NCBI GenBank assembly: GCA_045600525.1
Contig: JAZRYC010000162.1
Span: 1-62,802 of the forward strand
From: Bacteroidales bacterium
Lineage (GTDB): Bacteria; Bacteroidota; Bacteroidia; Bacteroidales; WCHB1-69
DNA: 62,802 nt
Direction of reading: 5' to 3'
A program made the translations under genes and the position numbers. This document shows positions 17,481 through 40,924 of this stretch, piece after piece. Below the pieces are notes generated by a model. The model was not told the origin of the DNA. It did not search any database and saw only the letters and a list, made by a program, of their open reading frames with translations. The stretch's first letter is position 1; the number at the start of each line of letters is the position of its first letter.

Positions 17481-20400
17481 ATGAAAAAGTTTCTATTTTT
17501 GATGCTGACGGTGATTATGATGTTGCCGGCGGTATTGCGGGCACAGGAAACCCTGACGATCGCAGATGGAACGACAACCAATGGTTATGTTCCCATCTAT
17601 GGCCTTTATGTGGACGAATATGTGCGTGCACAGACCATCTATCCCGATGTTATGTTGGAAGACATGGTTGGGGCATCTATCAGTTCAATGACCTATTATT
17701 TAAGCTCTACTTCTACAGTTTCTTCAACGGATGCATGGGGATGTCCTTTCCGTGTGCGTATGGCTGTGGTGGACGACGAAACGTTTGCCTCTAGCGCTTT
17801 TAATAGCACTACACTGACGGAAGTTTATTATGGTACCATTACGGTTGAAACAGACCTAACCATGCGTATTGAATTTGATGAACCCTTCCAGTATGATGGC
17901 GGCCATTTGATGGTTGACATTATCAATGAAAATACGGGAACTTACCATTCATCTTACTATTATGGAGCACCGTATGAAAATGCCAGTATTGCTGGTCATA
18001 ATTCTTCAAGTACCTCTAGTATTTCTTCTCTTAGTATTTATAATTTCATTCCGAAAACTACTTTTGAATACACCGCAGGTGGCGGCCCCATCTGTAGGTC
18101 TACTTCTGGTATTACGGTGACGGATGTGGATGAACAATCTGCCACTATTTACTGGTCTCCCAAAGGAGATGAGTCTTCTTGGGATATCTATTTAGCCGAA
18201 TCCGAAGATGATGTTCCAGATGCTACAACTGATGCCACCTATACTTCCAATGATACCAGTTACACTCTTTCCGGCTTGAATTCTTCCACTAGCTATATCG
18301 TATATGTCCGTGCCAATTGTGGTGATGGCGTGAGTTCTTGGAAACAGGTTTCTTTTACGACTTCCCAAATTCCTGGTATGCTGCCTTATCTTTGCGATTT
18401 TGAGGACGAAGCCGAAAATGAAAGTTGGACTATTATCACTGGTACGCCTAACTCCTGGTACATTGGCTCCGCTGTGAATACGACGGAATCTGGTGAAAAC
18501 GCCCTCTATGTGTCCAATGACAATGGTACGAGCAATGCCTATACCAATAGCACTTCCTGTACTTCATGGGCTTATCGCGATATTGATTTTGACCAAATGG
18601 CTGAATACGCTATTCGCTTTAAATATAAATGTGTTGGCGAATCTAGTTATGACTATTTGAAGGTGTTCGTTGGCGCACCGGCTACTCCTTCCGGAAGTAA
18701 TACGCCCGCAGGTGCAACCCTTCTTGGAACGTATAATACACACTCTTCTTGGACGGATGTGGAACTTTCTCTTAATTCTCAATACGCCGGTATTCAGCGT
18801 GTGTATTTCTTATGGAGAAACGATGGCTCTGGTGGTTCCAACCCACCTGCCGCTGTGGATGACATTGAGATTACGGGATCCAACTGCGGAGCTCCTTTAG
18901 GACTTGCTTTGGGAGATATTACGTCTAATGAAATTACCATCCATATCACTCCCGCTCTGGAAACCGATGGCGCTTGGGAAGCTCAGATCGTTTCCGGTAC
19001 CGATACCATGACGGAGTCTATTAACGAATTGGAATATACGTTTACCGGTCTTAATTCGGATACCTATTATCAAATTAGAGTGAGAACCGACTGTGGCGGC
19101 GAATACAGCAATTGGTCAAATGGTATTGGTGCTCGCACTGACTGCGAAACGATGGTTGCTCCTTATGAAGAAAACTTTACTGGCTTCGATAGCAATCCTT
19201 CTGCCTGCTGGGGAAGATATACCGGCTTGGCTTCTTCCGTTTTCAATGGCGGCGCGCTTACTTCCACTACTTCTGGTTGGATTTTCACCAGCAGTAATGT
19301 GTTCCCAATGGGTCACCCGAAGATCAATGTATATGGTTCTTCTACCGCTAAAACGTGGTTGGTTTCTCCTGAAATTGACTTGAGCAACCTGAGCAATCCG
19401 ACTTTGATGTTCTCTTTGGCATTGACCGATTATGGTAGTGCTGATCCTATTGAAGATGTTACAAACCAGGGTGACGATAAGTTTATGGTGATTATTTCCA
19501 CAGATGGTGGTGCTACTTGGACAGAAGAAAATGCCACAATTTGGAGTGATGACAATACGGTGGGCGACTATGCCTACAGTACCATCAGCAGTACGGGTGA
19601 AGACGTTACCATTTCTTTGGAACAATATGCTGGAGAAACCATTAAGATAGCCTTCTACGCTGAATCTACCCAAAGCAATGGCGATAATGACCTCCATATC
19701 TATGATGTGATTGTGAATGAACCCGTTGCTTGTGTAAGACCGAATGCTCTTACGGTTACTGACGTTACTTCTTCTTCCGTTACCCTTGAATGGGAGGAAA
19801 TGGGCGAAGCTTCTTCCTGGAATGTGGCTTATGGTCCTGAAGGATTTACGATTGATGACGAAACAATGGTGGTGAATGTTTCTGAACCTACGGCTACGAT
19901 TGACGATTTGGAAGGTGGTACTAAATATGATTTCTATGTTCAAGCCGACTGCGGTGGCGAAACCAGCTTGTGGAGAGGTCCTATTCTCGGTGTTCCGGGA
20001 ACCTATACCTTTGGCAATACGGGTAGCGATACTGTGACAGCTTGTGGCCTTGTTATTTATGATGAAGGTGGTGCCACGGGTGTATATAACAATAATTCAG
20101 ACTTTGTATTGGTAATCTATCCTGAAGAAGAAGGTTCCTATGTGGCTGTATATGGTGAACTGACCACTGAAAGTGTTGACTATCTCCGTATTTACGATGG
20201 TGTGGGTACTTCTGGCTCATACACTGAATATAGCGGTTCTGGTGTTACGATTCCTGTTACGATTTCCACCACGGGTCCGCTCACACTGAAATTCCATTCT
20301 GATTATTCTGTTACCTATGCGGGTTTTGAACTTCATCAGGCCTGTGTATCCTGTGTGGCTCCTGCTATTCAGCTTGAAAACCTTACTACCGAATCGGTTA

Positions 20401-23400
20401 CTTTGAGTTGGAGTGATAATGATGGTGAAACTTCTGCTTGGCAGTTGGTTTATGGTCCTGCCGGCATCAATCCTGAAACAGCAGAACCGGAAGATGTTTT
20501 CACCAACACCTACGATCTTACCGATCTTACCGCCAACACCGTGTACGATGTATATATTAGAACCAATTGTGGTGATGAATATAGTTTATGGTCATCGGTT
20601 ACCCGCTTCCGCACGCCTTGTGATGCTATAGATGAATTACCATTTGAAGAAGGCTTTGATAGCTATACCGCTTCCAGCTCTTCCATGTTTAATGACTGCT
20701 GGACGACTTACACTACGGGTAGCTATTATTATCCGTATGTGTCTTCTTCTTATGGACATAATGGTTCATCTAAGAGTCTTTATTTTGGTTATAGTTCCAA
20801 CTACTATGTTGCCCTTCCTCAGTTTGAAGAAGAAATTACTGCTTTGCAGTTGAGCTTCTATCAGAAGTATAATACTACTTCAACTTATGAATATGCTGTT
20901 GGTGTGATGTCCAATCCTAGTGACCTTTCCACCTTTGATACGATTTATGTAGGTACTGTGTCAACTGATTGGACGCTTTGCGAAGTTCCTTTGGCTTCCT
21001 ATACGGGAACGGGTCGCAACCTGGCTATTCGTACCGATAAATATATGTACATTGACGACATCGTTGTGGATTATATGCCTGACTGTCCGACACCTACCCT
21101 ATTTAGAGCAGATGCTATTTCCACTAATAGCATTTCCTTGTCTTGGTTTGAAAATGGTACGGCTACGTCTTGGGACATCACCTATTTCGATGGTACGGAC
21201 ACGGTCACTGTTACCGCTGATGTGAATGAAATGTTTGAAATCTCCAACTTGGAATCCAGTACATCCTATACGTTTACCTTAACCTCTGATTGCGGTAGCA
21301 ACCCGGTATCCCTTACCGTTCGCACGGCATGTGATGCGTTCCCGATTCCTTACACGGAAGATTTCGAAAGCTATTCAACCAGTACGAATATTCCTTGCTG
21401 GAACGTATTGAGCGGTACGGTGCAACCTTCTACCTCTTATCCGTGTGGCGGAACACAGGCTCTTAAGTTCTCCGGTACATTGAACAATATGGTGGTGATG
21501 CCTGCTTTCACTTCGGAAATCAGCGAATTGGAAATTTCCTTCAACACACGTCCTGAAAGTTTCACTTCTGATTACTCAGGTACTTTCCAAGTAGGTTATG
21601 TAACCAACGCAGCAGATGCTTCCACCTTTGTACCTACGGCAACCTTTACATGGTCTGACTTCGCTGATTGTGACGAACGCGTTGCTCTATTCCCAGATGC
21701 TCCTGCAGGCAGCCAAATTGCCTTCCGTCACCAGCCTACTTTGGACAACTGGTATTGGTTTGTGGACGACATCAATGTACATGATATTCCGACCTGCCCG
21801 AGACCTGCCAACCTCACCTTGGCTTCCGCAGAAACAAACAGCTTGTTCTTAAGCTGGACGGAAACAGGTGATGCCACTTCTTGGATTATCTCCTATTTCG
21901 ATGGTACGGATTCCGTTTATGAAACGGCTACGACCAATGAAATGTATGAACTCGCTGGTTTGAACAGCAATACAGCCTATGCGATTAGTGTTGTGGCCGA
22001 CTGTGGTGGCGAAACCAGTATGCCTATTTTCGGTACCTTCCGCACTGCCTGCGGTGAAATCAGCATTCCTTACACGGAAGATTTCGAAAGCTATGCAACC
22101 AGTGCAGATCTTCCTTGTTGGACCGTATTGGGCGGCACGGTACAACCGAGCACAAGTTATACACATTCTGGCGCAAGAAGCCTCAAGTTTTCAGGCAGCA
22201 CAAACAATATAATTGCAATGCCTTCCACAGAAGATGAAATCAATACGCTTGAACTTACATTCTTCACACGTCCTGAAAGCTTCTCAACTGCATCTTGCGG
22301 ATCCTTCCAAGTAGGTTATGTAACCGATTTGACTGACGCTTCTTCCTTCGTGGCTGTAGATAACTATACGTATTCTGATTTCTCAGACTATGAAGAAAAA
22401 ACGGTTGTATTTACGTCTGCACCTGCAGGAAGCTATGTCGCTTTCCGTCATCAAGCCGGCTCTTCCGCTTGGTATTGGTTTGTAGATGATATTGACCTCC
22501 ATGAAGTTCCTTCTTGTCCGAAACCTTCTCAGCTGACTGTGACGAATGTTACTTCTACGGATGTTACCCTTGAATGGAACGAGAATGGTTCTGCTTCAGA
22601 ATGGGAAATTGAATATGGTCCTATTGGCTTCACCCATGGTAACGGTACAACGGAAACCGCTACGGATCATCCTTATACCGTACAAGGTCTTGACATGGAT
22701 AATTATGAATTCTATGTGCGCGCCAATTGTGATGCCAATGACCAAAGTGATTGGGTAGGTCCTGTTTTTGCAGCACCTGGCTCCTTCAATATTCCTGCTA
22801 CGGGTACGGCTACCGTGTCTATGTGTGGTGGTAGTATCTATGATAACGGTGGTATCAATGGAAACTATTCTACCTCCTGCAATGCCACGGTGGTTATCAA
22901 TCCTGACACCCCGGGTATGCTGGTGCAGATCTCCGGTACATTTGATCTGGAACATGGATATGACTATCTTGAAGTATATGATGGAACAGACGCTACCGGA
23001 ACATATGTATTCAGAAGTTCTACTTCGACTTCTGATCCACAGTCGGGAGCTATTCCTACGATTACTTCCACTACGGGATCACTGACCTTACATTTCTATT
23101 CAGATGGTTCTAATCAGTATACAGGTTTCGCTATCAGCGTGGAATGTGTTAATGGTTCTGGCCCTGGTCCTCAACCTGTAGATACCTGCAATGCTCCTAC
23201 GCAACTTGCCGCATCTGAAATAACACACTCTTCTGTGAAATTGGATTGGGCACAGGAAGGTGATGTAAACAGCTGGACGGTTTACTACAAGAAAGCTACG
23301 GCTACCTCTTGGAGCACTATTCCTGCTGCTACACATCCTATGACCATCACGGATTTGGAAGCTGAAACCGCATACGAAGCTTATGTTAAAGCTAACTGCG

Positions 23401-23708
23401 CAGAAGGCGAAAGCGAACCTTCCAACACGGTTACCTTCACCACGAATCCTGACGGTGTGAACGACTACGTTTTGGAAAACAGCATCAGCCTGTATCCTAA
23501 CCCTGCCAACGAACAACTCACCATCAGCCGTGCTCAAGGTATGATGAACGAAGTGATTGTTTACGATGTTTACGGTAAGACCCTCCGCACGATGTCCGTC
23601 AATGACAACACGGTAGTGGTGAACGTAAATGACCTCGCTGCAGGTATGTACTTCGTACGCATCATCACCAACGAAGGTATGGCTACGAAGACCTTTGTGA
23701 AGAAATAA
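17481..23708 (+). CDS. giant secreted multidomain T9SS cargo protein 1 (2075 aa; FN3, jelly-roll and CUB-like modules, T9SS C-terminal domain)
   Basis: Uninterrupted 6.2-kb ORF with signal peptide MKKFLFLMLTVIMMLPAVLRA. By eye it has about 8 FN3-like units, about 5 jelly-roll units (PY.E.F...CW ... DD..V) and 2 CUB-like units. The C-terminal ...SLYPNPANEQLTIS...GMYFVRIITNEGMATKTFVKK is typical of type-A T9SS CTDs. Confidence 0.85.
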   Translation: MKKFLFLMLTVIMMLPAVLRAQETLTIADGTTTNGYVPIYGLYVDEYVRAQTIYPDVMLEDMVGASISSMTYYLSSTSTVSSTDAWGCPFRVRMAVVDDETFASSAFNSTTLTEVYYGTITVETDLTMRIEFDEPFQYDGGHLMVDIINENTGTYHSSYYYGAPYENASIAGHNSSSTSSISSLSIYNFIPKTTFEYTAGGGPICRSTSGITVTDVDEQSATIYWSPKGDESSWDIYLAESEDDVPDATTDATYTSNDTSYTLSGLNSSTSYIVYVRANCGDGVSSWKQVSFTTSQIPGMLPYLCDFEDEAENESWTIITGTPNSWYIGSAVNTTESGENALYVSNDNGTSNAYTNSTSCTSWAYRDIDFDQMAEYAIRFKYKCVGESSYDYLKVFVGAPATPSGSNTPAGATLLGTYNTHSSWTDVELSLNSQYAGIQRVYFLWRNDGSGGSNPPAAVDDIEITGSNCGAPLGLALGDITSNEITIHITPALETDGAWEAQIVSGTDTMTESINELEYTFTGLNSDTYYQIRVRTDCGGEYSNWSNGIGARTDCETMVAPYEENFTGFDSNPSACWGRYTGLASSVFNGGALTSTTSGWIFTSSNVFPMGHPKINVYGSSTAKTWLVSPEIDLSNLSNPTLMFSLALTDYGSADPIEDVTNQGDDKFMVIISTDGGATWTEENATIWSDDNTVGDYAYSTISSTGEDVTISLEQYAGETIKIAFYAESTQSNGDNDLHIYDVIVNEPVACVRPNALTVTDVTSSSVTLEWEEMGEASSWNVAYGPEGFTIDDETMVVNVSEPTATIDDLEGGTKYDFYVQADCGGETSLWRGPILGVPGTYTFGNTGSDTVTACGLVIYDEGGATGVYNNNSDFVLVIYPEEEGSYVAVYGELTTESVDYLRIYDGVGTSGSYTEYSGSGVTIPVTISTTGPLTLKFHSDYSVTYAGFELHQACVSCVAPAIQLENLTTESVTLSWSDNDGETSAWQLVYGPAGINPETAEPEDVFTNTYDLTDLTANTVYDVYIRTNCGDEYSLWSSVTRFRTPCDAIDELPFEEGFDSYTASSSSMFNDCWTTYTTGSYYYPYVSSSYGHNGSSKSLYFGYSSNYYVALPQFEEEITALQLSFYQKYNTTSTYEYAVGVMSNPSDLSTFDTIYVGTVSTDWTLCEVPLASYTGTGRNLAIRTDKYMYIDDIVVDYMPDCPTPTLFRADAISTNSISLSWFENGTATSWDITYFDGTDTVTVTADVNEMFEISNLESSTSYTFTLTSDCGSNPVSLTVRTACDAFPIPYTEDFESYSTSTNIPCWNVLSGTVQPSTSYPCGGTQALKFSGTLNNMVVMPAFTSEISELEISFNTRPESFTSDYSGTFQVGYVTNAADASTFVPTATFTWSDFADCDERVALFPDAPAGSQIAFRHQPTLDNWYWFVDDINVHDIPTCPRPANLTLASAETNSLFLSWTETGDATSWIISYFDGTDSVYETATTNEMYELAGLNSNTAYAISVVADCGGETSMPIFGTFRTACGEISIPYTEDFESYATSADLPCWTVLGGTVQPSTSYTHSGARSLKFSGSTNNIIAMPSTEDEINTLELTFFTRPESFSTASCGSFQVGYVTDLTDASSFVAVDNYTYSDFSDYEEKTVVFTSAPAGSYVAFRHQAGSSAWYWFVDDIDLHEVPSCPKPSQLTVTNVTSTDVTLEWNENGSASEWEIEYGPIGFTHGNGTTETATDHPYTVQGLDMDNYEFYVRANCDANDQSDWVGPVFAAPGSFNIPATGTATVSMCGGSIYDNGGINGNYSTSCNATVVINPDTPGMLVQISGTFDLEHGYDYLEVYDGTDATGTYVFRSSTSTSDPQSGAIPTITSTTGSLTLHFYSDGSNQYTGFAISVECVNGSGPGPQPVDTCNAPTQLAASEITHSSVKLDWAQEGDVNSWTVYYKKATATSWSTIPAATHPMTITDLEAETAYEAYVKANCAEGESEPSNTVTFTTNPDGVNDYVLENSISLYPNPANEQLTISRAQGMMNEVIVYDVYGKTLRTMSVNDNTVVVNVNDLAAGMYFVRIITNEGMATKTFVKK
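17544..18095 (+). other. unclassified ~185-190-aa module 'A' (copy in protein 1)
   Basis: ...NGYVPIYGLYVDEYVRAQTIYP... ends at a Cys (GGGPIC). Related to 25520..26089, 30459..31028 and 32061..32624. Confidence 0.5.
19995..20354 (+). other. CUB-like domain (protein 1, copy 1)
   Basis: TACGLVIYDEGGATGVYNNNSD...VDYLRIYDGVGTSG...GPLTLKFHSDYSVTYAGFELHQAC follows the CUB pattern CG..I...G.Y.N......YD.L.IYDG.....L.F.SD.S....GF. Confidence 0.55.
21084..22514 (+). repeat. in-frame tandem duplication (711 + 720 nt) of an FN3 + jelly-roll unit inside gene 1
   Basis: Unit boundaries fall at Cys codons 21084, 21795 and 22515. The identical 30-mer attccttacacggaagatttcgaaagctat occurs at about 21345 and about 22065 (720-nt period). 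Confidence 0.8.
22776..23147 (+). other. CUB-like domain (protein 1, copy 2)
   Basis: SMCGGSIYDNGGINGNYSTSCN...YDYLEVYDGTDATG...GSLTLHFYSDGSNQYTGFAISVEC. Confidence 0.55.
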
Positions 23709-23762
23709 TCTTCTCAAAAAATAATACGATGAAAGGGCGGAAGTTTTTTCCGCCCTTTTTTT
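23178..23762 (+). repeat. conserved 3' cassette (FN3 + T9SS CTD + stop + terminator), copy 1
   Basis: Collinear without indels with 28868..29452 at a constant offset of 5690 nt. The last ~194 nt show about 5 mismatches by eye. Confidence 0.85.
23733..23762 (+). terminator. terminator of giant gene 1
   Basis: aagggcggaa gtttt ttccgccctt followed by a T-run. Confidence 0.75.
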
Positions 23763-23823
23763 GTCGCCAATTGGCCGGTCCGCGGTGCCCCTTCTTTTTT
23801 TGTAGCGCAAATCATAAATTTTG

Positions 23824-23831
23824 TATTTTCG
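23824..23831 (+). promoter_or_regulatory. near-consensus -7 box TATTTTCG upstream of giant gene 2
   Basis: One mismatch to TAnnTTTG. The context ttttgtattttcgcc resembles the gene 3 upstream context tttttgtatattcgcc. Confidence 0.3.
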
Positions 23832-23896
23832 CCCGCCTAATATTGAAGTGTATTATAATATAATGACAATCTTTATTAATATTTAAATCTTATTTT

Positions 23897-26800
23897 ATGA
23901 AAAGAAATTTATTGTTTACCTTGTTGCTGCTTGTGATGGCGGTTTTTGCCAAAGCACAGGCACCGATCTTCCAAGAGGATTTCGAGGGTGGCACACTTCC
24001 TGCGGGATGGACCACCATTGATGCCGACGGAGACGATTATGATTGGATGAATTCTGCCTTTCTTCTGGGTCCGGGAGCCGGACATGCGGGCAGTGATTAC
24101 TGTATGCTATCGCAGTCTTACGACAATGATACATATAGTGCCCTTTTCCCAGACAACTGGCTGATTACCCCGCCCATTACTTTGGATAATAGTTCCATGC
24201 TCCATTTCTGGGTGTGTGGGCAAGACCAAGACTATCCCGAAGAACACTATGGGGTCTATGTATCCTATAACTCCGCTACAGACACCAACGATTTCAACCT
24301 TGTTTATGAGGAAACCATCGGCCGTCGTATGACTCGAGGCCAATCCACCTGGGTGGAGCATATTGTCGATCTTTCCGAGTTTACGGGCGCTACCGTGTAT
24401 ATTGCCTTTAGACATTTTAACTGCACTGATGCGTTTTATTTGGACTTAGACGACGTTTCCGTGATTCCGAATCCAACCTCGCCCGCCATTATGGCATATC
24501 CTTCAACGTTGGATTTCAACACGGTCTTTTTATTCGATACGTCTGTTGTGAAAACCGTTCAAGTAACGGGATTCTTTCTTTCATCAGACATTACCGTTCA
24601 AACATCCATTCCCTTTGAGGTCTCTGAAGACAACGTCAATTATAGCGATATGATTGTTCTTCCCGATACAGGTGGTGTGTTTTATGTGAGATATGTTCCC
24701 TACGCAGAAGGTACGGACAATCAAACCATTCAACTTTCCTCTGGTTCAACAAGTGCTTCCTGCAGTCTCACCGGCCAGTGTCTGGATTGCGGTTTTCCCA
24801 TACATGAAAGCTTTGAAAGCGAGTTGTCTGCCTGCTGGAAGTTGGCAAATGAAAGCATGGCCAATATCAATGTGATTGATTATTCGACCGATTATGCCAG
24901 CGATGGTGCGCAAAGCCTTGTCTTTTCCTCCTATTTTACGGCAGCGGACTACAATTATAACCAGTATTTGATTTCTCCGATGCTGCCTACCGATGTGGCA
25001 AAGATGATGTCTTTTGACTATCGGTCAGGCGATGTGGATCCCGAAACCTTCCAAGTGGGATTTTCCACCACGACCGCGGATTTTACCGCCTTTACTTGGA
25101 GTGATGAAATCATCATTGATCCGGCCGATGGTTGGAAAAGCTATCTTAATACAACTATTCCTGCCAATGTGAAGTACGTAGCCATCAGATACACCTCCTA
25201 CTATTCCTATTATTTATATATTGATAATTTGAAGATTGAGGAAGTGTCCAGCTGTATGTATCCTTCCAATCTCGTGGTGGACAACATTAAAGGAACTTCC
25301 GCCAGAGTGGCCTGGACGCCGGCCGATGGTTTGGACGGTACGGAATCCTTCATGGTGGAATATGGTGAAAGCAGTGATCTGAACTTTAATTCCATGAGCA
25401 CATCCGATAACTATGTGCTTTTATCCGGATTGAGTCCGAATACAGAATATGAAGTGATGCTGTATATGCTTTGTTCCGGCGGAACCAGCGATACGGTTTC
25501 CACTACCTTTACCACCGGCTGTCTCAGCGGCGGTCCTCAAACCATTGGCAGTGGCAGTGCTACAAGCTACATTTACCCTATCAATAACTACTATAGTTAC
25601 TCCTATTCTCAACAGATCTATCTGTCTGACGAAATTGGTACCTCTGGTGAAATCAATACGATTTCTTTTGACTATGCCTATTCCAATCCCTATAGCAGCG
25701 ACGATGTGGTGGTTTATTTAGGACATACTTCCCAATCTGAGATTGTTAATACGTCATCATCTGTACCCTTCAGTGATTTGACGAGGGTGTATTCCGGCAG
25801 TTTCAACTTTGCACAGGGTTGGAATGAAATCACGTTGGATAGTTCCTTCTACTACAACGGCCAGGACAATTTGGTGTTGGCTATTGATGTCAATAGTGAA
25901 AATTACCATGGTATGAGTTATGTCTTCCGCGTACACAGTACGGGAGATGTGAATAGGGCTATATGCTATGTTTCCGACTATAACGATGTGGATCCGGAGG
26001 ATTTAACGACCAGTGCTTATGCAGATTATTCCTCTATGGTGCGTAATAATGTGATTTTCGGTATGGCCTGCGATTCCACGGTGAGCTGTCTGCCTCCTAA
26101 TATGATCGTGGCGGATGCGCTTCCAGAAGAAGTAACCATAGACTGGGTGCCCGGCAATAGTGAGTCATCCTGGACTTTGGAATATCAGATCCAAGGTGAT
26201 TCCTCTTGGACCATGGAAGGGGTGGTGACCTCTTCGCCCTATACGATTTCCGGTTTGGAAAGCAGTACAGCCTATCGTATTCGCATGTACTCCAACTGTG
26301 AATCAGGTGAAGCCAGCTCAATGGCTATGGCCGTCGTAACTACGCCTTGTGAGGGTATTTCCATAGATGATCTTCCCTTTGTGGAGAATTTCAACGATGC
26401 CGTGGGACGTTATCTCCCTTGCTGGAGTAGAGGCACCAATTATCCTTATTTGGATTATCCGTATATTGTAGAAGATGCCGCTTCCGCTTCTCAAAAGTAT
26501 CTTTCTTTCTATGGATATCCCACTTATTATTCATACGCCGCCCTTCCTGCCATGGATGAGGAAATCTCTATGGATAACCTAATCATTAAGTTCGACATGT
26601 ATATGTCTGACGAAGACTACTTTGTTGAAGTGGGTGTGATGACGGATCCCGAAGACTATAGTACGTTTACGTCTATAGCTCAGCTTTCCGCCTCTTCCTT
26701 AAATGTTTGGGAACCCGTGGAATTAGTCACTTCCGCCTACACGGGAACGGGTAGAAATATTGCCTTCCGTACCCCCATGGGCTATTACAATACCATATAT

Positions 26801-29398
26801 TTGGACAATATCAGTGTGGATGTCGTTCCTTCCTGCTTCCATGTGAACGATATTACCGTTTCCAATGTTACCACTTCCACGGCCGACATCCATTGGATGC
26901 CCGGTGCAGGCGAAACCTCATGGCAGTATGTGTACGCACCCTATGGCACGATTGATGTTGATAACGACATGATTTATGACGTGTTTGAGGATTCTGTAAA
27001 CCTTATCGACCTTGCCGGAAACACCTATTATGAAATCCTTATCAGGGCCAATTGCGGCAATGGTGAATATAGTGAATGGGCATCTGCCACCTTCCGTACG
27101 GGCTGCGTGGCCATCACCAATTTACCCTATGAGGAGAATTTTGATACCTATGTGGGTATGACTTCCACTTCTCCTTCCCAAAACGTCTTACCTAATTGTT
27201 GGGAACAGTATTTTACCGGACCAACTACTTCCACATACGCCCATTATCCATATATCTATCAATCTCAAAGCAATGCGGCATCGGGTCGTAATGCCATGCG
27301 CTTCTATATCTACAATACCACCTATACAACCAGTGCGGGTGACCAGATGGCCATCCTTCCGGAAATAGACGCCTCGCTGCCTATCAGCATTCTGCGCCTT
27401 GGTTTTAGTGCGAGAAGGGCCTTTGAAAACGATGATTTTGTCTTAGTAGTGGGTGTTATGGAAGACACAACCTTTGTTCCTATGGATACGATAAATGTTT
27501 TGACAAACACGTACGAAGATTTTGAAGTGAACTTCGGCTCTTATGTGGGAACGACGGGCAACCGTATAGCTATTTTGGCAGCCAGGAGTTTTGCCAATAA
27601 CTACAATGCCGGATATGTGGATAACATTGTTATTTCCTCTATTCCCAATTGTGACCGTCCTTCTGAAATCCATGTGGTTAATATTTCCGACAATACGATT
27701 GAAGTGGCATGGACGCCTAATATTGTAGATGACCATTCCTGGATTTTGGAATACAAGGAATCTACTGACAATGAATGGATAAGCATGAATGTTGCCAATA
27801 CTCCTTCTGCCGTTATCAGCGGTCTTATTCCCTCTACGGCTTATGATATCAGAGTGAGAACGGATTGTGGTGTGGAAGGTATTAGTGACGAAAGAAATCT
27901 GAATGGTTCTATTTTCACCAATGCCTGTCCTTCTTCTGAACAATGTTCTTACACGTTTATCTTGGGAGACCAATATGGTGACGGATGGAGCGGCAATCAG
28001 TTGGTGGTAATTCAAAATGGCAATCCGATTGCCACTTTGACAGCCCAAAATCATGGTGGCAGTAGCTATAATGATGCTGCAACGGACACCATCACATTGG
28101 CTGTTTGTGACAATATGGACCTGCAGTTCCAATGGGTGGAAGGTTCCTATTCGTACGAGGCATTCTTCTCTGTATATGATATCAATGAAAATCTGATATT
28201 CTCTTGTACGGATGGCTCTACTCTTGATGAGGGTGTTATTTTCACCGGTACGGTGAACTGTGCCCTTCCTACTTGCCCGAGACCTAGAAACATTGCGGTA
28301 AGCAATATCACAACTACCTCTGTGGATGTGAATTGGACAGAAGTTGGATCCGCTACGGAGTGGCTTTTGGAATATAGAGAGGAAATGGATGCTTCTTGGC
28401 AGTCCGTTTCAGTAACTTCATTGTCATATACCCTTAACAACTTGACTTTGAATACCACTTATGAGATACGTGTTTCATCGGTTTGTGGCTCTGACGAAAC
28501 AAGTGAGCCCACTGACTCTGTCGTGGTAACTACGGCTCCTTGCGATGACGCCTGTGTTTATCGCATTGAGATGGAGGACAGCTACGGTGATGGTTGGAGT
28601 GGAAACGCCATTTCCATTTTGGTCAACGGCACCGTGGACACCACGGTTGCAGTGCCCGATGCGGAAAGTACGGCTTCCTTTACTTTCTACCAGTGTACGT
28701 CTGGCGAAGTGTCCTTTGTATGGAGTGAAGGCAGCTATTCTTATGAGGCTTCATTTGCAATCTATGATGGCGATGGCAATGAATTGTTCTCCGCCATTGG
28801 AGAGTCTCTAACGGAAGATGAGGCATTCTATGTGGACACCTGTGGTAATGTGACACCTCCGACGCCTGTTGATACCTGCCACGCTCCTATGCAGCTTGCC
28901 GCATCCAATGTGACCCATTACTCTGTGGATTTGGATTGGGCACAGGCAGGCGATGTGAACAGTTGGACGGTTTACTATAAGGAGGCTGCGGCCGCTGCTT
29001 GGAATACTATCCCTGCTACTACGCATCCTATGACTATTTCTGATCTGACGGCAGAAACCACATATATGGCATACGTAACCGCCGTTTGTGAGGAAGGCGA
29101 AAGCGAACCTTCCAACACAGTGACTTTCACCACGGAACCTGACGGTGTGAACGACTACGTTTTGAAAAACAGCATCAGTCTGTATCCGAATCCCGCCAAG
29201 GAACAATTCACCATCAGCTGTGCCGATGTTGTGATGAACGAAGTGGTGGTTTACGACGTTTACGGTAAGACCCTCCGCACGATGTCCGTCAATGACAACA
29301 CGGTGGTGGTGAACGTAAACGACCTCGCTGCAGGCATGTACTTCGTACGCATTATCACCAACGAAGGTATGGCTACGAAGACCTTTGTGAAGAAATAA
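23897..29398 (+). CDS. giant secreted multidomain T9SS cargo protein 2 (1833 aa; N-terminal cleaved-adhesin-like domain, FN3, jelly-roll and GDGW modules, T9SS CTD)
   Basis: Uninterrupted 5.5-kb ORF with signal peptide MKRNLLFTLLLLVMAVFAKA. The C-terminal 177 aa are nearly identical to protein 1. Confidence 0.85.
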   Translation: MKRNLLFTLLLLVMAVFAKAQAPIFQEDFEGGTLPAGWTTIDADGDDYDWMNSAFLLGPGAGHAGSDYCMLSQSYDNDTYSALFPDNWLITPPITLDNSSMLHFWVCGQDQDYPEEHYGVYVSYNSATDTNDFNLVYEETIGRRMTRGQSTWVEHIVDLSEFTGATVYIAFRHFNCTDAFYLDLDDVSVIPNPTSPAIMAYPSTLDFNTVFLFDTSVVKTVQVTGFFLSSDITVQTSIPFEVSEDNVNYSDMIVLPDTGGVFYVRYVPYAEGTDNQTIQLSSGSTSASCSLTGQCLDCGFPIHESFESELSACWKLANESMANINVIDYSTDYASDGAQSLVFSSYFTAADYNYNQYLISPMLPTDVAKMMSFDYRSGDVDPETFQVGFSTTTADFTAFTWSDEIIIDPADGWKSYLNTTIPANVKYVAIRYTSYYSYYLYIDNLKIEEVSSCMYPSNLVVDNIKGTSARVAWTPADGLDGTESFMVEYGESSDLNFNSMSTSDNYVLLSGLSPNTEYEVMLYMLCSGGTSDTVSTTFTTGCLSGGPQTIGSGSATSYIYPINNYYSYSYSQQIYLSDEIGTSGEINTISFDYAYSNPYSSDDVVVYLGHTSQSEIVNTSSSVPFSDLTRVYSGSFNFAQGWNEITLDSSFYYNGQDNLVLAIDVNSENYHGMSYVFRVHSTGDVNRAICYVSDYNDVDPEDLTTSAYADYSSMVRNNVIFGMACDSTVSCLPPNMIVADALPEEVTIDWVPGNSESSWTLEYQIQGDSSWTMEGVVTSSPYTISGLESSTAYRIRMYSNCESGEASSMAMAVVTTPCEGISIDDLPFVENFNDAVGRYLPCWSRGTNYPYLDYPYIVEDAASASQKYLSFYGYPTYYSYAALPAMDEEISMDNLIIKFDMYMSDEDYFVEVGVMTDPEDYSTFTSIAQLSASSLNVWEPVELVTSAYTGTGRNIAFRTPMGYYNTIYLDNISVDVVPSCFHVNDITVSNVTTSTADIHWMPGAGETSWQYVYAPYGTIDVDNDMIYDVFEDSVNLIDLAGNTYYEILIRANCGNGEYSEWASATFRTGCVAITNLPYEENFDTYVGMTSTSPSQNVLPNCWEQYFTGPTTSTYAHYPYIYQSQSNAASGRNAMRFYIYNTTYTTSAGDQMAILPEIDASLPISILRLGFSARRAFENDDFVLVVGVMEDTTFVPMDTINVLTNTYEDFEVNFGSYVGTTGNRIAILAARSFANNYNAGYVDNIVISSIPNCDRPSEIHVVNISDNTIEVAWTPNIVDDHSWILEYKESTDNEWISMNVANTPSAVISGLIPSTAYDIRVRTDCGVEGISDERNLNGSIFTNACPSSEQCSYTFILGDQYGDGWSGNQLVVIQNGNPIATLTAQNHGGSSYNDAATDTITLAVCDNMDLQFQWVEGSYSYEAFFSVYDINENLIFSCTDGSTLDEGVIFTGTVNCALPTCPRPRNIAVSNITTTSVDVNWTEVGSATEWLLEYREEMDASWQSVSVTSLSYTLNNLTLNTTYEIRVSSVCGSDETSEPTDSVVVTTAPCDDACVYRIEMEDSYGDGWSGNAISILVNGTVDTTVAVPDAESTASFTFYQCTSGEVSFVWSEGSYSYEASFAIYDGDGNELFSAIGESLTEDEAFYVDTCGNVTPPTPVDTCHAPMQLAASNVTHYSVDLDWAQAGDVNSWTVYYKEAAAAAWNTIPATTHPMTISDLTAETTYMAYVTAVCEEGESEPSNTVTFTTEPDGVNDYVLKNSISLYPNPAKEQFTISCADVVMNEVVVYDVYGKTLRTMSVNDNTVVVNVNDLAAGMYFVRIITNEGMATKTFVKK
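23960..24470 (+). other. cleaved-adhesin (gingipain/HagA haemagglutinin-type) domain
   Basis: FQEDFEGGTLPAGWTTIDADGDDYDWMN...DNWLITPPITL...HFWVCGQDQDYPEEHYGVYVS...FNLVYEETI parallels the known Kgp/HagA adhesin-domain pattern (F.E.FE....P.GW..IDADGDG.GW...DN.LI.P......YA..........EHYAV..S). Confidence 0.7.
25520..26089 (+). other. unclassified module 'A' (protein 2)
   Basis: Cys-bracketed 190 aa: CLSGGPQTIGSGSATSYIYPINNYYSYSYSQQIYLSDEI...VYLGHTS...GWNEITLDSSFYYNGQDNLVLAID...VSC. Confidence 0.5.
27926..28261 (+). other. unclassified Cys-bracketed 'GDGWSGN' module, copy 1
   Basis: CPSSEQCSYTFILGDQYGDGWSGNQLVVIQNG...QWVEGSYSYEAFFSVYD...GTVNC. Confidence 0.5.
28541..28843 (+). other. unclassified Cys-bracketed 'GDGWSGN' module, copy 2
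   Basis: CDDACVYRIEMEDSYGDGWSGNAISILVNG...VWSEGSYSYEASFAIYD...YVDTC. Confidence 0.5.
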
Positions 29399-29452
29399 TC
29401 TTCTCAAAAAATAATACGATGAAAGGACGGAAGTTTTTTCCGCCCTTTTTTT
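28868..29452 (+). repeat. conserved 3' cassette, copy 2
   Basis: See 23178..23762. Confidence 0.85.
29423..29452 (+). terminator. terminator of giant gene 2
   Basis: aaggacggaa gtttt ttccgccctt plus a T-run. It differs from the gene 1 terminator at one base. Confidence 0.7.
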
Positions 29453-29482
29453 GTTTGAAAAGATGAGACAAACAAATTTTTG

Positions 29483-29490
29483 TATATTCG
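29483..29490 (+). promoter_or_regulatory. near-consensus -7 box TATATTCG upstream of giant gene 3
   Basis: One mismatch to TAnnTTTG, about 83 nt upstream of the ATG at 29574. Confidence 0.3.
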
Positions 29491-29573
29491 CCACCGGTTT
29501 TGTTCAAAATTGAAGAACAAGAAGATAGCAGATAAGAAATACAATCTTTTAATATTAACCAAAATTCGTCATT

Positions 29574-32500
29574 ATGAAAAAATTTTTACTATTTACAATG
29601 ATGATCTTGCTGTCTTTACCTTGGCTGACGAAAGCGCAAAACTGCGTGTCACCGGTAAACCTGCAAGCAACCTTGCATTCGCCGTCATGGTATAATGTGA
29701 CTTTGAACTGGGCCATGGAATCCGATGAATCCACTGACGTTTTGCAGTGGTGTACGAATGATATGTACAGTGCGGTGGGAATGTCCGAAGGTCCTGTCGT
29801 CTTTTCAGCAGCCGTGCGTTTTCCCGTAACAAGCTTGTCTTCCTACATGGATCATTCGTTGGTGTCGGTGTCGTTCTATCCCTATACGGGAGGATCAAAT
29901 GCGGCGGCAGACTACACCATCAACATCTACCAAGGTGGTAGTTTTGTCAATGGAACGTTTAATCCCGGAAACGTGGTCTATACGCAGGCCATACAGAGTT
30001 CCACATTGACGTATGACGCGTATAATACCGTTATGTTGGAAACGCCGGTAGCCATAGATCCCACGCAGGAACTATGGATTACGATACTGGCCTCTTCCGC
30101 TTCTACGCAGGCATGCTATCCTTTCGGTTGTAGCAATAATGGTCCCAGCGCAGGTCTCGGCGCCCTTTTAGTTGAAGAAGACGAATGGGATGACCTTACC
30201 ACAATGTCTGGATTGGAAGAATATAACTGGATTATTGCGGGGAATGTTATTTCCACCGAAAATCTAACTTCAGGCAATATCCTTTCGGGATATAATGTGT
30301 ATCGTGACAACGAACAGTTAAACAGCACGCTGTTGACTGGTACGAGCTATGTGGACACCATTGAGGCAGGCGATTATAATTACGAAGTAACGGCCGTGTA
30401 TGTAAACGGTTGTGAGTCTGCTCCCGTTAGCGTCTCCGTTACGATGGAGGCAAACCCGTGTCTTTCCTGTTTGGACAGTGTTGTGTTTGGAAATAATTCA
30501 ACCAGCACGTCGGGATATATTCCAACGAATCCCTACTATGGATATTCTTATACGCAGCAAATTTATGATGCCGCCACGTTTGGTGAAATCAATGGAGGAA
30601 TCCAATGTGTGGGAATCAACTATATCTATCCGTCTGCTATTACCAGAAATCTGAAGATATATATGGGTAACACGTCGAAGAATAGTTTCGGTTCCAGTAC
30701 AGACTGGGTTCCCCTTTCCGATATGTTCCTGGTTTACGAGGGTCCCGTGACATTTGATCCGTCTTCGGCGGTTAACGGATATGTGAATATTCCGCTGAAC
30801 ACTCCTTTTGAATGGGATGGCTCCAGCAATGTGGTATTCATGGTTTTGGATGAAACCGGCACCTATATCAGCAGTGGTGAGTATTTCGGTACGCATTCAG
30901 CTTCCTCAAAGTCAATCTATGTGTATCGTGATGGTACTCCTTATGATAATGTTTTGGCTTCCGCAACGGGAAGCGTGTATAGTTATCGCAACAACATCCG
31001 CTTCTATGTGGGCGAAGAGATTGTTTGCCCGATGCCGAACAATTTCGCTGTTTCCCATGTGACAGATCAAAGTGCTGAGTTGTCATGGACTGACAGAGGT
31101 TTCGCCAACGATTTCGAATTGGTATTGGTTCCGGAAACCAGCACTTTCGATGATGAATCTCAATCTCCGATTATTGTTTCAGGTACCGACTACGAATTGA
31201 CGGACCTTATGCCCAACACCGAATACACAGTGTATTTGCGTTCCAATTGTTCTTCTGACAATTCCCATTGGGTGAGCCGCAATTTCCATACGGAATGCGG
31301 AATTGTTACGGAATTACCGTATGTTGAGGATTTCGACGCCTATGCGAACAACGTAATGCCGGACTGCTGGCACAGATTGTCAGATTACGATTATCCCTAT
31401 ACATCTTCCAGCTATCATGCCAGTGGTGTGAAATCACTCTACTTCTACGCATATTCTCCTACATACTCCATGGCCAATACGCCGATGATGGATCTGTCAA
31501 CCTACACGCCTGGTTCCTTGGTACTATCCTTCAAAGTGATGAAAACCAGTGATGACTATGGCAGAATTGAAGTTGGCTACATGACGGATGCCAATGATGT
31601 CAGTACCTTCAGCTTGTTGAAATCCATCTATTCCACGGATTATCCCTCTACCAACATTTGGATTGATCAGACGGTTGTCCTGCCCGATGCCGCCTACGCA
31701 GAACCAATCAATATCGCCTTCCGTGTCTCATCAGGCGAATCATATGTGACGAATATTGTCTATTTGGATGATGTGACCGTGGACCTTGTTCCAGAGTGCT
31801 CAAATCCGTCTGTGCTGACGGTTTCCCATATCGAAGGCTCTTCTGCCATAGTTTCTTGGACGGCGGCTCCCTATGGCGTTACCGACTATATTCTGGAGTA
31901 CAGCGAAGCCGGCCAGGAAAACTGGAACATCGTAAATGTTTCCAATGCCACGACCTATTTTCTTTCCGAACTTCTGGAAAACACCCCCTATGAGGTGCGC
32001 GTAAGTTCGGATTGCGCAGGCGAGGAAACCACACCCATTACAACGACCTTTATTACTAACTGCCTTTCTGGCGGAGATTATGAGGTTGGAAACGGAACCG
32101 GTTCAAAATACCAAATTCCTGTAAACAATTATTATAATTATTCTTACACCCAACAGATATTTGAGGCCAACGAGATGAATGGCCCTTCCGACATCCGCAG
32201 TGTCGCCTTCTTCTATAATTATTCTACTGCTTCTACGAGTAAGAATAATGTGAACATCTATTTGGGACATACTTCCAAGTCGGCTTTCTCCGCATCTTCT
32301 GATTATGAAACCGCTGACAGTCTGCATTTGGTTTATTCTGGTGCTTTGAATTGTCAAAACGGATGGAATACTTTTGCCTTTGACAGTGTATTCCATTATA
32401 ACGGAACAGACAACCTGATTTTGGCCGTGGATGACAACTCAGGTAATTATAATGGTAGTTCTTATACGTTTAGGACGCACACCACATCTTCAACGAAGAC

Positions 32501-35500
32501 TATCTATTACTATAGTGATAGCAGTAATCCGACTCCGTCCAATCCCTCAGTAGCTTCAGCATCTGTGGTATCTGACAGAAACGATGTTAAATTCGGTGGT
32601 GAGTGTGATCCAATGGTGGCGTGTGTGAAGCCAAATGCCCTGATTACGGAATATGACTATGAAAGTATTACATTGACATGGGTTCCTGCCGCCTCTGAAT
32701 CTTCTTGGGAAATTGAATATCAGTTGGATGGCGATGATACTTGGGAATCCGAAGGTGTCGTAACTTCCTATCCTTATACGATTTCCGGCTTGCAGTCCAA
32801 CTCCCCATACCATATCCGCATTCGTTCAATCTGCGATGCGAGCGACGCCAGTGATTGGAAGAACTTGGATTGTAGCACGGAATGTGCCGTATTGGAAACA
32901 TTGCCCATTGTGGAGGATTTTGAGAATGTGACGGGTGACTTTATGGATTGCTGGAAACGTTTGACCAATTATTCTTCAGCATCTCCCTATATTACCGAAG
33001 GCTATAATCATACCCCCAATGGCGAAAAGGCATTGCGTTTCTATTGCCCGGGCAGTAGCTATTACGCCTATGCCGTGACACCTAGATTTGATGAAAACAT
33101 TTTCATGAATAACCTTCTCATCCAATTCTATGCTTATAAGCAGAATGATGGTTATATGATGGAAGTGGGTGTGATGACCAATCCTGACGATCCTTCTACG
33201 TTCATCACTTTGGGAACGTTCTCCCCCGAAAATCAGAACCGCTGGGAATTGGAAGAAGTAACGACTGTAAACTATATGGGAAATGGTCATTATGTCGCGT
33301 TCAGAATCCCTGCCTGGTATAGCAATGACATGTATGTGGATGACATTCGTATTGATGTTATTCCGAATTGCCAGCATGTGGCTGACCTTCATGTCAATCC
33401 GGCAACGATATCCACAGAGACTGTGGACATTGAATGGACACCTGTGGGAACGGAAGACGCATGGGATTATGTGGTAAGCGATACCATGGTCAATCCTGAT
33501 GACGAATCTTTCAACACGGTATCATCCAGTTTCGTCACCATTGACGGTCTTGCGGCAAATACAGAATATTATGTTTATGTGAGAGCCAATTGCGGTGGTG
33601 AGGTCAGCGAATGGATGTACACCAATTTCAAAACATCCTGCTATGCCCTGACCAGTGCGGACCTCCCGTATATTGAAAATTTCGATTCCTATACGGGTTC
33701 TACCTCCACATTGCCTTTGGAAGGCAATCTGCCAGACTGTTGGAATAACTATTTTGGCGGTACGGCTTCGGGTTACGAGGTTTATCCGTTCATTTATGAT
33801 GCATCATCTGCTGCCGCTTCCGGAAACAATGCGCTGCGTTATTATCTATATTCAGGTTCCACCTATGGCGATGAAGTAGCCATTCTTCCGGAAATCGATA
33901 CGCTGGAACTCCCGATGTCATCATTAATGCTTTCTTTTGATGCCCGCCAGGTTAATGCCGGCACTAGTTATATGTCGGAATTGGTTGTCGGTGTCGTTAC
34001 GGGTTTGGATATGAGCTCCTTCCAACCTGTCCAGACGATTTCAATCCCTGCCGCAAGCTATACTACGTTTGATGTGTATTTCGCCAATTTCACGGGATCG
34101 GGTAATCGCATCGCTATAAAGATGACTCCGCCGACAGGCAATTATTATTACAACCAATGTTATGTGGATAATGTTTCCATACGCATCGCCTCCAGCTGTT
34201 TGCGTCCTACCGACATTCATCAGGTGTCCACTACTTCAAACTCTATTGAACTGGGTTGGACTTCTATGGGCGAAGAGGAGTCTTGGAATATTGAATATGG
34301 TCCTACGGGATTTGTTTTGGGTGAAGGTACCGCTGTAACGGCTACGACCAATCCTTATATGATTTCCAATTTGGAGGACTCTGTCTATGATTTCTATGTG
34401 AGCGCCGATTGTGGTAGCGAACAGAGTATGTGGACAGGACCGTTTAGCGCACGGCCCGGCACCTATTTTATGCCGGTTTCCGGTACCGCGACGATTTCCC
34501 TTTGCGGTGGACATCTCTATGATGACGGCGGTCCGAACAATCCATACAGTAATTCCAGTAATGCCGTTTTGACGATTATGCCGTCTGCTCCGGGTGCTGT
34601 GGTTAGTTTGTCAGGCTCCGTATATACGGAAAGCTCGTTTGACGAACTCTACATTTATGATGGTGCCTCTGTTACTGGTGCACAGCTGGCCTACCTGACG
34701 GGTAATGTCAATAATGTGTCAGTGACCTCCATCTCGGGTCCGCTCACGCTGAAGTTTACTTCGGATGGTTCTTTAAACTACGACGGCTTTGACTTTGCTG
34801 TTTCCTGCGTCACTTGTCTTGCTCCTGCCGATTTGCAGGTGTCCTCCGTTACCACCAGCCAGATCAACTTCTCATGGAGTGGTGCGAATGTGTCAGGTTG
34901 GGAAATTGAATACGGTCCAGCTGGTTTCACACAGGGATCAGGCACTTCGGTGACAACTTCTTCACCATCCTATTCTTTCACGGGCCTGACACCTTCCACA
35001 AATTATGATTTCTACTTCAGAACCAATTGTGGCGGCGGCGACTACAGCGAGTGGATGCTGATGACGGTGGCTACGGCATGCGATGCGATGCCTGTTCCCT
35101 ATACGGAAGATTTTGACTCTTATGCCGGCACTACGTATGATCAAGAAGGCCCTGTACCGACTTGTTGGAGCTCCTTTACTACAAGTTCCACGTATGAAGC
35201 ACCTCATGTGACCTCTTCCAGTACCGGATGCTATCCGCATAGTGGAACGAATGCTCTTACCTTTGTATCCAATAACGGTTCCAGTGCTTATGCAGTGCTT
35301 CCTATGTTTGACCAACCTCTGAATACCTTAAAGCTTCGTTTCTGGTATGAGTTTGAAAGCGCCTCTTCCGGCACACTCACCGTGGGCTATGTCACAAGTT
35401 CCGCCAATTTGAGTACCTTTGTACCGGTGGCTACGATCAATGGTGTTTCTTCTTTGACAAAGGATTCCGTTGACTTTTCCACGGCAGGAAACGTACCCGC

Positions 35501-36134: not shown

Positions 36135-36140
36135 TCTTCT
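35601..36140 (+). repeat. conserved 3' cassette, copy 3 (more diverged; homology ends 6 nt after the stop)
   Basis: VDPDCPAPT...TFVKK. One extra codon relative to copies 1 and 2. The shared taatcttct is followed by a different terminator. Confidence 0.8.
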
Positions 36141-36155
36141 TTGCAATATATCTGT

Positions 36156-40908: not shown

Positions 40909-40924
40909 TTTTACATTAGATACT

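Follow-up and report, generated by a model that had tools for sequence, protein, structure and literature searches.

Probable recurrent gene conversion among the 3' ends of three tandem giant T9SS cargo genes in a gut Bacteroidales bacterium

How do three neighbouring genes whose products have drifted far apart come to end in nearly the same DNA, in one pair even beyond the stop codon? The question is raised by 62,802 nt of a contig (JAZRYC010000162.1, positions 1 to 62,802 of the forward strand, GenBank assembly GCA_045600525.1; this whole stretch is called the window here), which is part of the chromosome of an uncultured Bacteroidales bacterium of the gut. The window carries three giant open reading frames (ORFs), g1, g2 and g3, arranged head to tail on the + strand, and each codes at its 3' end for a fibronectin type III (FN3) domain followed by a C-terminal sorting domain (CTD) of the type IX system for secretion (T9SS). 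We call this repeated 3' segment the cassette and the part of the protein upstream of it the passenger. Over 1600-1800 aligned residues the passengers are only 30% (g1-g2), 30% (g1-g3) and 38% (g2-g3) identical in amino acids (aa), and judged by these alignments the three genes are deep paralogs. An original prediction, made from the sequence by eye, attributed the shared tails to gene conversion or a very recent duplication. The second option is excluded by passengers of 30-38% identity, and because it is excluded, recombinational homogenisation remains; the first option is supported. We consider it highly probable that the cassette tails have been homogenised by recurrent gene conversion, and that the same direct repeats have also yielded loss and gain of units and structural alleles.

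Repeats were mapped by self-BLAST of the window and by an identity profile at a fixed offset of 5690 nt. Self-BLAST found only three inter-genic repeats in the window. The cassettes of g1 and g2 match over 590 nt at 85.6% identity, with 0 gaps and a constant offset of 5690, which extends the gapless alignment described in the original prediction, and identity at this offset is at background before 23175 and beyond 23764. Identity rises in steps along the cassette, from 73.8% in the FN3 part (23178-23402, 59 of 225 nt differ) to 87.5% over 23403-23570 (21 of 168 nt differ), and only 5 mismatches remain among the 194 nt of 23571-23764 (at 23615, 23630, 23645, 23663 and 23737). The four coding mismatches of this last tract are all synonymous and at third positions, and 55 of the 56 non-coding nt (23709-23764) are identical between the two genes. 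These values agree with what had been estimated by eye, namely roughly three quarters of identity, a rise from about 23403 (a breakpoint scan gives exactly this position) and about five mismatches at the end. The stop codon, a stretch of non-coding DNA and the terminator hairpin had also been placed inside the last tract; all of them lie there, the distance from stop to hairpin being 22 nt instead of the 24 nt proposed.

The third copy is more distant. Self-BLAST aligns g1 with g3 at 81.9% identity (23241-23714 versus 35667-36140) and g2 with g3 at 81.8% (28906-29404 versus 35642-36140). The g3 cassette had been drawn from 35601 to 36140 with lower identity than the other two; its identity (~82%) and its end 6 nt past the stop codon hold, whereas DNA homology starts only at ~35642-35667 and reaches back to ~35604 at the protein level. 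Beyond 36140 the sequence is unrelated to cassettes 1 and 2. All three genes share 90-100% identity over 23409-23498, and the longest perfect runs measure 73 and 47 nt (g1/g2), 41 nt (g1/g3) and 45 nt (g2/g3). Coordinates are collected in Table 1.

Table 1. Coordinates of the giant genes, cassette copies, identity tracts, terminators and spacers in the window
Feature	Coordinates	Strand	Description
g1 (2075 aa)	17481..23708	+	Signal-peptide-like N-terminus, several FN3 and CUB/MAM-like domains, T9SS type A sorting domain at the C-terminus (from ORF, Pfam, TIGR04183)
g2 (1833 aa)	23897..29398	+	N-terminal Cleaved_Adhesin / choice-of-anchor J domain, FN3 repeats, T9SS type A CTD
g3 (2186 aa)	29574..36134	+	FN3 repeats, MAM-like domain, T9SS type A CTD
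Cassette copy 1	23175..23764	+	Linker, last FN3 ~23193-23438, CTD ~23490-23705, stop 23706-23708, 22-nt spacer, terminator
Cassette copy 2	28865..29454	+	Gapless match to copy 1 at offset 5690
Cassette copy 3	35642..36140	+	~82% identical to copies 1 and 2; stop codon 36132-36134
Middle tract	23403..23567	+	End of FN3, linker, first half of CTD; g2=g3 favoured by site patterns; max-chi-square breakpoint at left edge
Putative newest g1/g2 conversion tract	23568..23764 (partner 29258-29454)	+	197 nt, 5 mismatches, dN = 0; spans stop codon into terminator
g1 intrinsic terminator	23731..23764	+	GGGCGG/CCGCCC core stem, then U-run; -22.3 kcal/mol
g2 terminator	29421..29454	+	g1-type hairpin with one A.C mismatch (29427); -15.3 kcal/mol
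g3 terminator	36156..36185	+	Unrelated hairpin AAGGGTGGGG/CCCCACCCTT; -21.9 kcal/mol
g1-g2 spacer	23765..23896	+	Holds probable g2 promoter/5'UTR (5' untranslated region); missing from run X8 along with g2 passenger
g2-g3 spacer	29455..29573	+	Holds probable g3 promoter/5'UTR; missing from runs X2-X4 along with g3 passenger

The steps are statistically supported when all sites are counted. In a max-chi-square scan the main breakpoint falls at 23403 (permutation p = 2e-4), and the second step (21/168 versus 5/194) gives a Fisher p of 3e-4. We calculated synonymous (dS) and nonsynonymous (dN) divergence by the Nei-Gojobori method, and restricted a synonymous-only test to degenerate third positions of conserved codons. 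In the FN3 part dS is ~1.7 for all gene pairs, in 23403-23528 it is 0.26-0.50, and in the last 147 coding nt it is 0.17 for g1/g2 (with dN = 0) and 0.44-0.49 against g3, and dN stays low along the whole tail. At synonymous sites the CTD (0.17-0.49) thus lies far below the FN3 part (~1.7), and identity is stepped, not uniform, across coding and non-coding DNA; neither the uniform identity nor the equal synonymous divergence that would have spoken against the original prediction was seen. Synonymous third positions differ between g1 and g2 at 16 of 37 sites in the FN3 part, 8 of 42 in the middle tract and 5 of 46 at the end (FN3 versus end, Fisher p = 0.001), and the 56 non-coding nt are at least as conserved between the two genes as their synonymous sites. 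Synonymous sites of the FN3 part are so nearly saturated that its ~74% identity mainly reflects constraint on the protein, and we attribute the step there mostly to such constraint together with an exchange of older date.

The tails also group the genes differently from the passengers. Passengers group g2 with g3 (38% versus 30% aa identity), whereas the tail and last FN3 domain group g1 with g2, so that the two trees are incongruent. In the last FN3 domain g1 and g2 are 78% identical in aa and each is 61-63% identical to g3. This likeness of g1 and g2, opposite to the passenger tree, would indicate an older exchange from the sharp boundary at 23175. Along the three-way alignment the closest partners change, from mostly g1=g2 (23229-23342) to g1=g3 (23345-23396), g2=g3 (23399-23501), g1=g2 (23507-23525), g2=g3 (23529-23558) and again g1=g2 to the end.

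Related strains carry other versions of the locus. Deletion or fusion junctions between cassettes had been proposed as something to seek in long-read data or related strains; we found them in public gut-metagenome runs (numbered with the prefix X), as short-read and not long-read contigs. In X8 (20-30x depth) a 6872-nt contig spans the upstream gene and the g1 counterpart (g1') as far as 23540. A 6593-nt contig begins in the shared tail and terminator (equivalent to 23685-23764 and 29375-29454), crosses the g2-g3 spacer, takes in the g3' passenger from end to end and reaches into the g3' cassette, and a third leads from the tail into g3-type downstream sequence and the aspartate aminotransferase gene aspC. 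Depth is zero over 23770-23986 and 23904-29215, that is, over the g1-g2 spacer and the whole g2 passenger, and g1' is the only passenger recovered besides g3'. On the simplest reading X8 has a g1'-g3' locus that is shorter by exactly one repeat unit of 5690 nt, as would be expected after a crossover between cassettes 1 and 2. Three other runs (X2, X3 and X4) carry g1' and g2', with the g2 region ~99% identical to the window, but neither the g2-g3 spacer nor the g3 passenger turns up in them, even when the likeness threshold is 80%; one contig of X2 carries 31 nt from the end of a tail, joined to g3-type downstream sequence. All three genes are present in X1 and X5, and probably in X6, the three passengers of X1 being at similar depth. 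The earlier proposal that the repeats are substrates for losing or swapping whole passengers is thus borne out, by X8 without the g2 unit and X2-X4 without the g3 unit. The deletion variants are known from short-read contigs, which do not give the exact crossover point.

Not only the gene content but also the homogenised pair differs among strains. In X8 a 99-nt contig (23616-23714) represents both CTD copies, at double depth (55 versus 20 and 29), and exits to both downstream types. The g1' and g3' tails of this run collapse into single contigs of double depth at 23511-23555 and at 23616-23714, and only within a bubble of 118 nt are they distinct, whereas g1 and g3 of the window differ at 14 sites within 23616-23714. 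Comparison of the g1'/g3' pair of X8 with the g1/g2 pair of the window thus shows that different pairs have been homogenised in different strains. The FN3 region of g2 in X2 matches the window at 99.4% identity (4 of 642 nt differ), while the only CTD contig recovered differs from the window g2 at 23 of 243 nt and from the window g1 at 11 of 243. The tail states of X2 and X8 are as ongoing conversion predicts, unlike what would be expected from pure selection or a single ancient event. The stop codon that precedes the g3-type downstream sequence in X2 is TAG and not TAA (A>G at 36134), and for this reason the assembly graph of that run splits exactly at the stop codon. Most contig joints in the run mapping were disregarded, as their sides were only 20-39 nt long or came from very abundant unrelated contigs, and a second run search with the housekeeping flank as query yielded no deeper or closer runs.

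The pattern is not confined to this species. Three metagenome-assembled genomes (MAGs; L096, L097 and L121) have the same neighbourhood (array, aspC, htrA), each with two cassette-bearing giant genes (A and B) upstream of aspC. Within a genome the FN3 domains of A and B are 40% (L097) and 39% (L121) identical in aa and 51-53% in nt, with dS saturated, whereas their CTDs are 82-85% identical in aa (85% in L097) and 80-87% in nt; in all three MAGs identity leaps from ~50% to ~90% at the CTD start. FN3 domains cluster by position across species (A/A 87%, B/B 90%), whereas CTDs cluster by lineage. The window CTDs are 84-90% identical in aa among themselves and 38-47% identical to those of the three MAGs. 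The within-genome CTD dS of L097 (0.40) is not higher than the dS between L097 and L121 orthologs (0.44-0.51). This same FN3-to-CTD pattern in other species means that concerted CTD evolution is recurrent at this kind of locus, with older and weaker homogenisation in L096 and L121.

Paralogs of L097 (1148-1200, 9868-9920) and L121 (1147-1200, 9870-9920) end in nearly the same hairpin, GGGGCGA...TCGCCCC, and differ in the 20-25 nt that separate it from the stop codon; the likeness may be due to conversion in patches or to convergence of the terminators. Most other related Bacteroidales MAGs, including L088-L095 and L098, have no cassette-bearing gene within 10 kb upstream of aspC, so that few lineages have the giant-gene array next to aspC, namely that of the window and those of L096, L097 and L121. 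A search of the cassette protein against representative genomes returned only distant relatives (23-45% identical), one of 5.8 billion proteins returned no relative above 52% identity, and exact or degenerate cassette DNA patterns had no match in the genome contigs searched or in JGI metagenomes. Searches for proteins identical to the products of the neighbouring MTHFS and aspC genes, read from either start codon, were likewise without a match, so that the collections searched do not contain the source genome.

We propose that non-reciprocal homologous recombination between the copies, that is, gene conversion, would repeatedly homogenise the CTD-coding DNA. Older events would have left the ~85-90% identity among all three copies from 23403 on, and an older exchange starting at 23175 may have given g1 and g2 the same FN3 type. 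In the putative newest event ~200 nt (23568-23764 = 29258-29454) would have been copied between g1 and g2, the stop codon and all of the terminator included. The seed identity, in perfect runs of 41-73 nt, would be preserved by purifying selection on the secretion signal and renewed by conversion, making the process self-sustaining. Homologous recombination can be seeded by perfect runs of such length. Reciprocal crossover or deletion between the direct repeats would remove or add whole units (passenger plus spacer), and the resulting population alleles would be g1-g2-g3, g1-g2 and g1-g3. The process is ordinary homologous recombination between tandem paralogs and involves no new mechanism. 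Homogenisation may itself be selected, the CTD being co-adapted with the T9SS of its lineage, or it may be a neutral by-product.

Several observations weigh against this account or limit its detail. When only synonymous sites are compared, the middle and last tracts do not differ significantly (8/42 versus 5/46, p = 0.37). A GENECONV-type check, which had been suggested for the original prediction and which we ran in a permutation version of our own, gave nominal best-fragment p values of 0.036 (g1/g2), 0.009 (g1/g3) and 0.030 (g2/g3), weakly significant, uncorrected and of little power with three sequences. A runs test on the three-way alignment gave p = 0.03, and third positions alone p = 0.09. 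Because the fragment and runs tests are marginal, a mosaic of multiple tracts is not firmly established; it is likely but not proven. Strain contigs other than those of X8 are at 4-6x depth, break inside the repeats and could mix strains, and the depth of the CTD contig shared in X2 and X3 is not doubled, although collapse of two copies predicts doubling. An alternative path through the X8 graph, from g1' to aspC with g3' looped on itself, is conceivable in place of the g1'-g3' locus, though it would still be a cassette-mediated rearrangement. As to RecA dependence, enzymology and the direction of each conversion, these are points that we infer.

Could the near-identity be explained without recombination? 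Strong purifying selection at protein and nucleotide level would then have to act on the T9SS signal, and perhaps on an mRNA 3'-end element. The CTD is indeed a functional secretion signal (matched by TIGR04183 and PF18962), dN is low across the tail, and the terminator is functional sequence. But synonymous sites and the 22 nt of non-structured spacer are kept between g1 and g2 and not in g3, related species with CTDs only 38-47% identical to those of the window show that the protein sequence is under less constraint than this would require, tail and passenger trees disagree, and the homogenised pair varies between strains. Nor does the tail belong to an Rfam family: an RNA element was considered and rejected, since Rfam gave only sub-threshold terminator-like matches (best DapZ, 28.5 bits, gathering score 56). 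Selection without recombination is in our judgement very improbable, and so, with little more than a trace of probability, is a single recent event, in which one partial duplication or 3'-end replacement was followed by ordinary divergence. The newest g1/g2 tract could be one event, but at least three identity levels with changing partners (g1=g2, g1=g3, g2=g3), a homogenisation state that differs among X8, X2 and the window, and the recurrence of the pattern in three other species are not accounted for in this way, and duplication of whole genes is excluded by the 30-38% identity of the passengers.

Exchange between strains deserves more attention. Foreign DNA might recombine at the conserved CTD or flanking genes and replace tails or passengers, homogenisation being a by-product. 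Contigs of X9 (17833-26374 versus 34272-35194) match the window with 0-1 mismatch in 200-375 nt in g1 and g2, and g3 differs by 5-6%, which suggests that strains otherwise nearly identical have had g3 replaced by another allele, or that the sample contains a mixture of strains. Divergence is likewise a mosaic along the locus, the g2 passenger being 99% identical between the window and X2-X4 and g1 only ~92% between the window and X8, and surface genes of Porphyromonas gingivalis are reported to diversify by allelic exchange (PMC5266723). Such exchange leaves unexplained why paralog tails are near-identical within a genome (g1/g2; g1'/g3' of X8; A/B of L097) and different between genomes, and we consider it unlikely as the explanation of the tails. 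It is compatible with intragenomic conversion, and both probably act, with exchange between strains contributing alongside. An assembly artefact, in which repeat collapse or chimeric joining of strains had made the tails or the three-gene order, would be conceivable for a seemingly uncultured organism, and short-read assemblers do break at the cassette repeats. It is nevertheless extremely unlikely, because copies 1 and 2 still show 5 private differences and each is bounded on either side by a unique flank of its own, and because the junctions at the g1/g2 spacer, the g2/g3 spacer and g3/aspC are reproduced in the independent assemblies of X1, X5, X6 and X8; the similar depth of the three passengers in X1 speaks against it as well.

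Programmed variation of the invertase or shufflon kind was also rejected: there is no recombinase beside the array, no inverted repeats flank a promoter, there are no silent cassettes, and all copies are complete ORFs. Antisense ORFs opposite the cassettes (minus strand, 23100-23810, 28808-29494 and 35733-36146; 236, 228 and 137 aa) were set aside, having no Pfam match and substitutions that follow the + frame; they are probably a side effect of sense-frame codon composition. Recurrent gene conversion remains the account that we favour.

The domain content of the three proteins is consistent with T9SS cargo. TIGR04183 scores 47.6, 50.7 and 50.5 bits in g1, g2 and g3 (cutoff 23), and PF18962 matches the last 72 residues of all three at 50.5-51.5 bits (cutoff 27). 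PF00041 is above cutoff directly upstream of the CTD (aa 1905-1986 in g1, 1663-1744 in g2, 2016-2097 in g3), with whole-protein scores of 163-212 bits (cutoff 25). In g1, Pfam finds fn3 in 8 stretches, CUB, and Por_Secre_tail at aa 2004-2072. The N-termini are basic and hydrophobic, end in ..AQ or KAQ and, read from the sequence alone, resemble signal peptides; that of g1 reads MKKFLFLMLTVIMMLPAVLRAQ. A ~650-nt domain-coding segment of g1 is tandemly repeated (21162-21806 versus 21873-22526, 66% nt identity, 12 gaps), so that module duplication inside passengers has occurred as well.

The terminator and promoter regions differ in how far they are shared. The one non-coding mismatch between cassettes 1 and 2 (23737 G versus 29427 A) costs the g2 terminator stem a G-C pair and changes the hairpin from -22.3 to -15.3 kcal/mol. 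Past the terminator, the g1-g2 and g2-g3 spacers have short promoter and 5'UTR motifs in common, with indels, and are thus not wholly unrelated. Upstream of g1, g2 and g3 (17400-17480, 23815-23896 and 29475-29573) the common motifs, with intervening indels, are TTTGTAnnTTCGCC, a AATATTGAAG-like box and TTAATATTAACCAAA immediately before the ATG. They probably represent a common Bacteroidota-type promoter and 5'UTR, which suggests that the ancestral duplicated unit was an entire transcription unit. A sigma-70 promoter scan was uninformative (41 sites versus 39.7 expected), as is usual for Bacteroidota. Short contigs of X1-X4 match only the g3 5'UTR and start codon (29548-29587, ~85%) and then diverge into other signal-peptide and upstream sequences; these appear to be further paralogs with the same 5' leader elsewhere.

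Around the array, the neighbouring genes are MTHFS, DUF5692, aspC and htrA, and the housekeeping genes of the window comprise valS, uvrB, der, an oxyR-like regulator, dpp7, aspC, htrA, GldD and a sigma-70 factor. The closest genomes (ValS 93-94% and AspC ~90% identical in aa) are MAGs from horse faeces and ruminants. None of the core T9SS genes PorK/L/M/N, Sov and PorU/V was found within the window, which does contain GldD (40306-40908). GldD adjoins a further T9SS cargo gene at 40868-42208 (446 aa, Exo_endo_phos plus Por_Secre_tail), which lies 5 kb further downstream than the array, and overlaps the start called mechanically for that gene. This cargo gene has no DNA similarity to the cassette, and therefore not every nearby CTD is homogenised.

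The CTD start may be shared more widely. The depth of the segment 23442-23509 (in the other two copies 29132-29199 and 35868-35935) is 5-10x that of the sequence on either side in X1 and X3, and several contigs of these runs join the CTD start at ~23435 to another FN3-like end (...SAASETIHFTT), so that the same start of the CTD must be present in other genes too, be they of this genome or of relatives that live alongside it. Together with the jump in identity from FN3 to CTD in three species, this hints at a broader reading, in which T9SS CTD DNA of gut Bacteroidales is a lineage-specific, genome-wide 'portable homology anchor': conversion would match the signals to the organism's own secretion and attachment machinery, and the anchors would permit passengers to be lost, gained or swapped. 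We put this forward tentatively, as possible rather than probable. If it were true, CTD-mediated recombination would be a general engine of surface-repertoire variation and not the peculiarity of one locus.

The locus itself provides a clean, quantified case in which a secretion-signal module evolves in concert while the attached passengers diverge freely, and in which a repeated module creates gene-content polymorphism of giant surface proteins in natural gut populations. This explains why such loci fragment in short-read assemblies and makes their tail sequences unfit for orthology inference. For T9SS biology it suggests that CTD uniformity within a lineage arises by recombination and not by selection alone, which matters when constrained CTD residues are inferred.

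The closest precedent in its workings is the hagA-kgp pair of P. gingivalis, where near-identical C-terminal repeats recombine and kgp is deleted in frame, as in the variants BE1 and BR1 (PMC9328147). In the same species, domain modularity and rearrangement together with gene conversion have been invoked for surface diversity (PMC5266723). Like hagA-kgp (and rgpA), the genes of the window are tandem Bacteroidales genes for large T9SS cargo with repeated 3' coding regions, and g2 has a Cleaved_Adhesin domain, which is typical of HagA and gingipains. However, they have no protease domain, and their passengers are FN3/CUB/MAM arrays of 30-38% identity. The shared DNA amounts to ~0.5 kb (last FN3 plus CTD, with the terminator in two copies) and not to kilobases of adhesin repeats, the organism belongs to an uncultured herbivore-gut lineage, and the evidence is comparative, without laboratory variants. 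Cleaved_Adhesin occurs only at the g2 N-terminus, and the cassette repeats consist of FN3 and CTD and not of gingipain or HagA modules; the likeness to hagA-kgp therefore lies in workings and not in homology of the locus.

A second parallel is the lpl lipoprotein cluster of Staphylococcus aureus, in which a short conserved segment in each tandem paralog is the recombination site (Tsuru and Kobayashi 2008, PMC2568036). There the unit subject to gain, loss or shuffling between strains runs from a conserved segment through the intergenic region to the next conserved segment (PMC2568036), a structure matched by the 5.69-kb and 6.74-kb units of the window locus. The lpl segment is central in the ORF, whereas that of the window is the 3' end, including the terminator for g1 and g2, and phylum and protein family are different. 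The window locus is homologous to neither hagA-kgp nor lpl.

Intrachromosomal conversion also keeps paralogs within a genome, such as tufA/tufB and rRNA operons, more alike than orthologs between genomes. There whole genes are homogenised, whereas at the window locus only the C-terminal signal module is, beside strongly diverged passengers. In the pilE/pilS system of Neisseria, recombination between repeated segments alters surface proteins. The window copies differ in being complete genes, each with a terminator, promoter-like motifs and a signal-peptide-like N-terminus of its own, and there are no silent donor cassettes; it is the conserved and not the variable module that is copied, and no dedicated recombinase or invertible promoter was seen. 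In the full-text literature on concerted evolution or gene conversion of T9SS CTDs we found nothing specific beyond the P. gingivalis work. The kind of genome dynamics described here is already known, and the window locus is an unusually well-documented further case of it.

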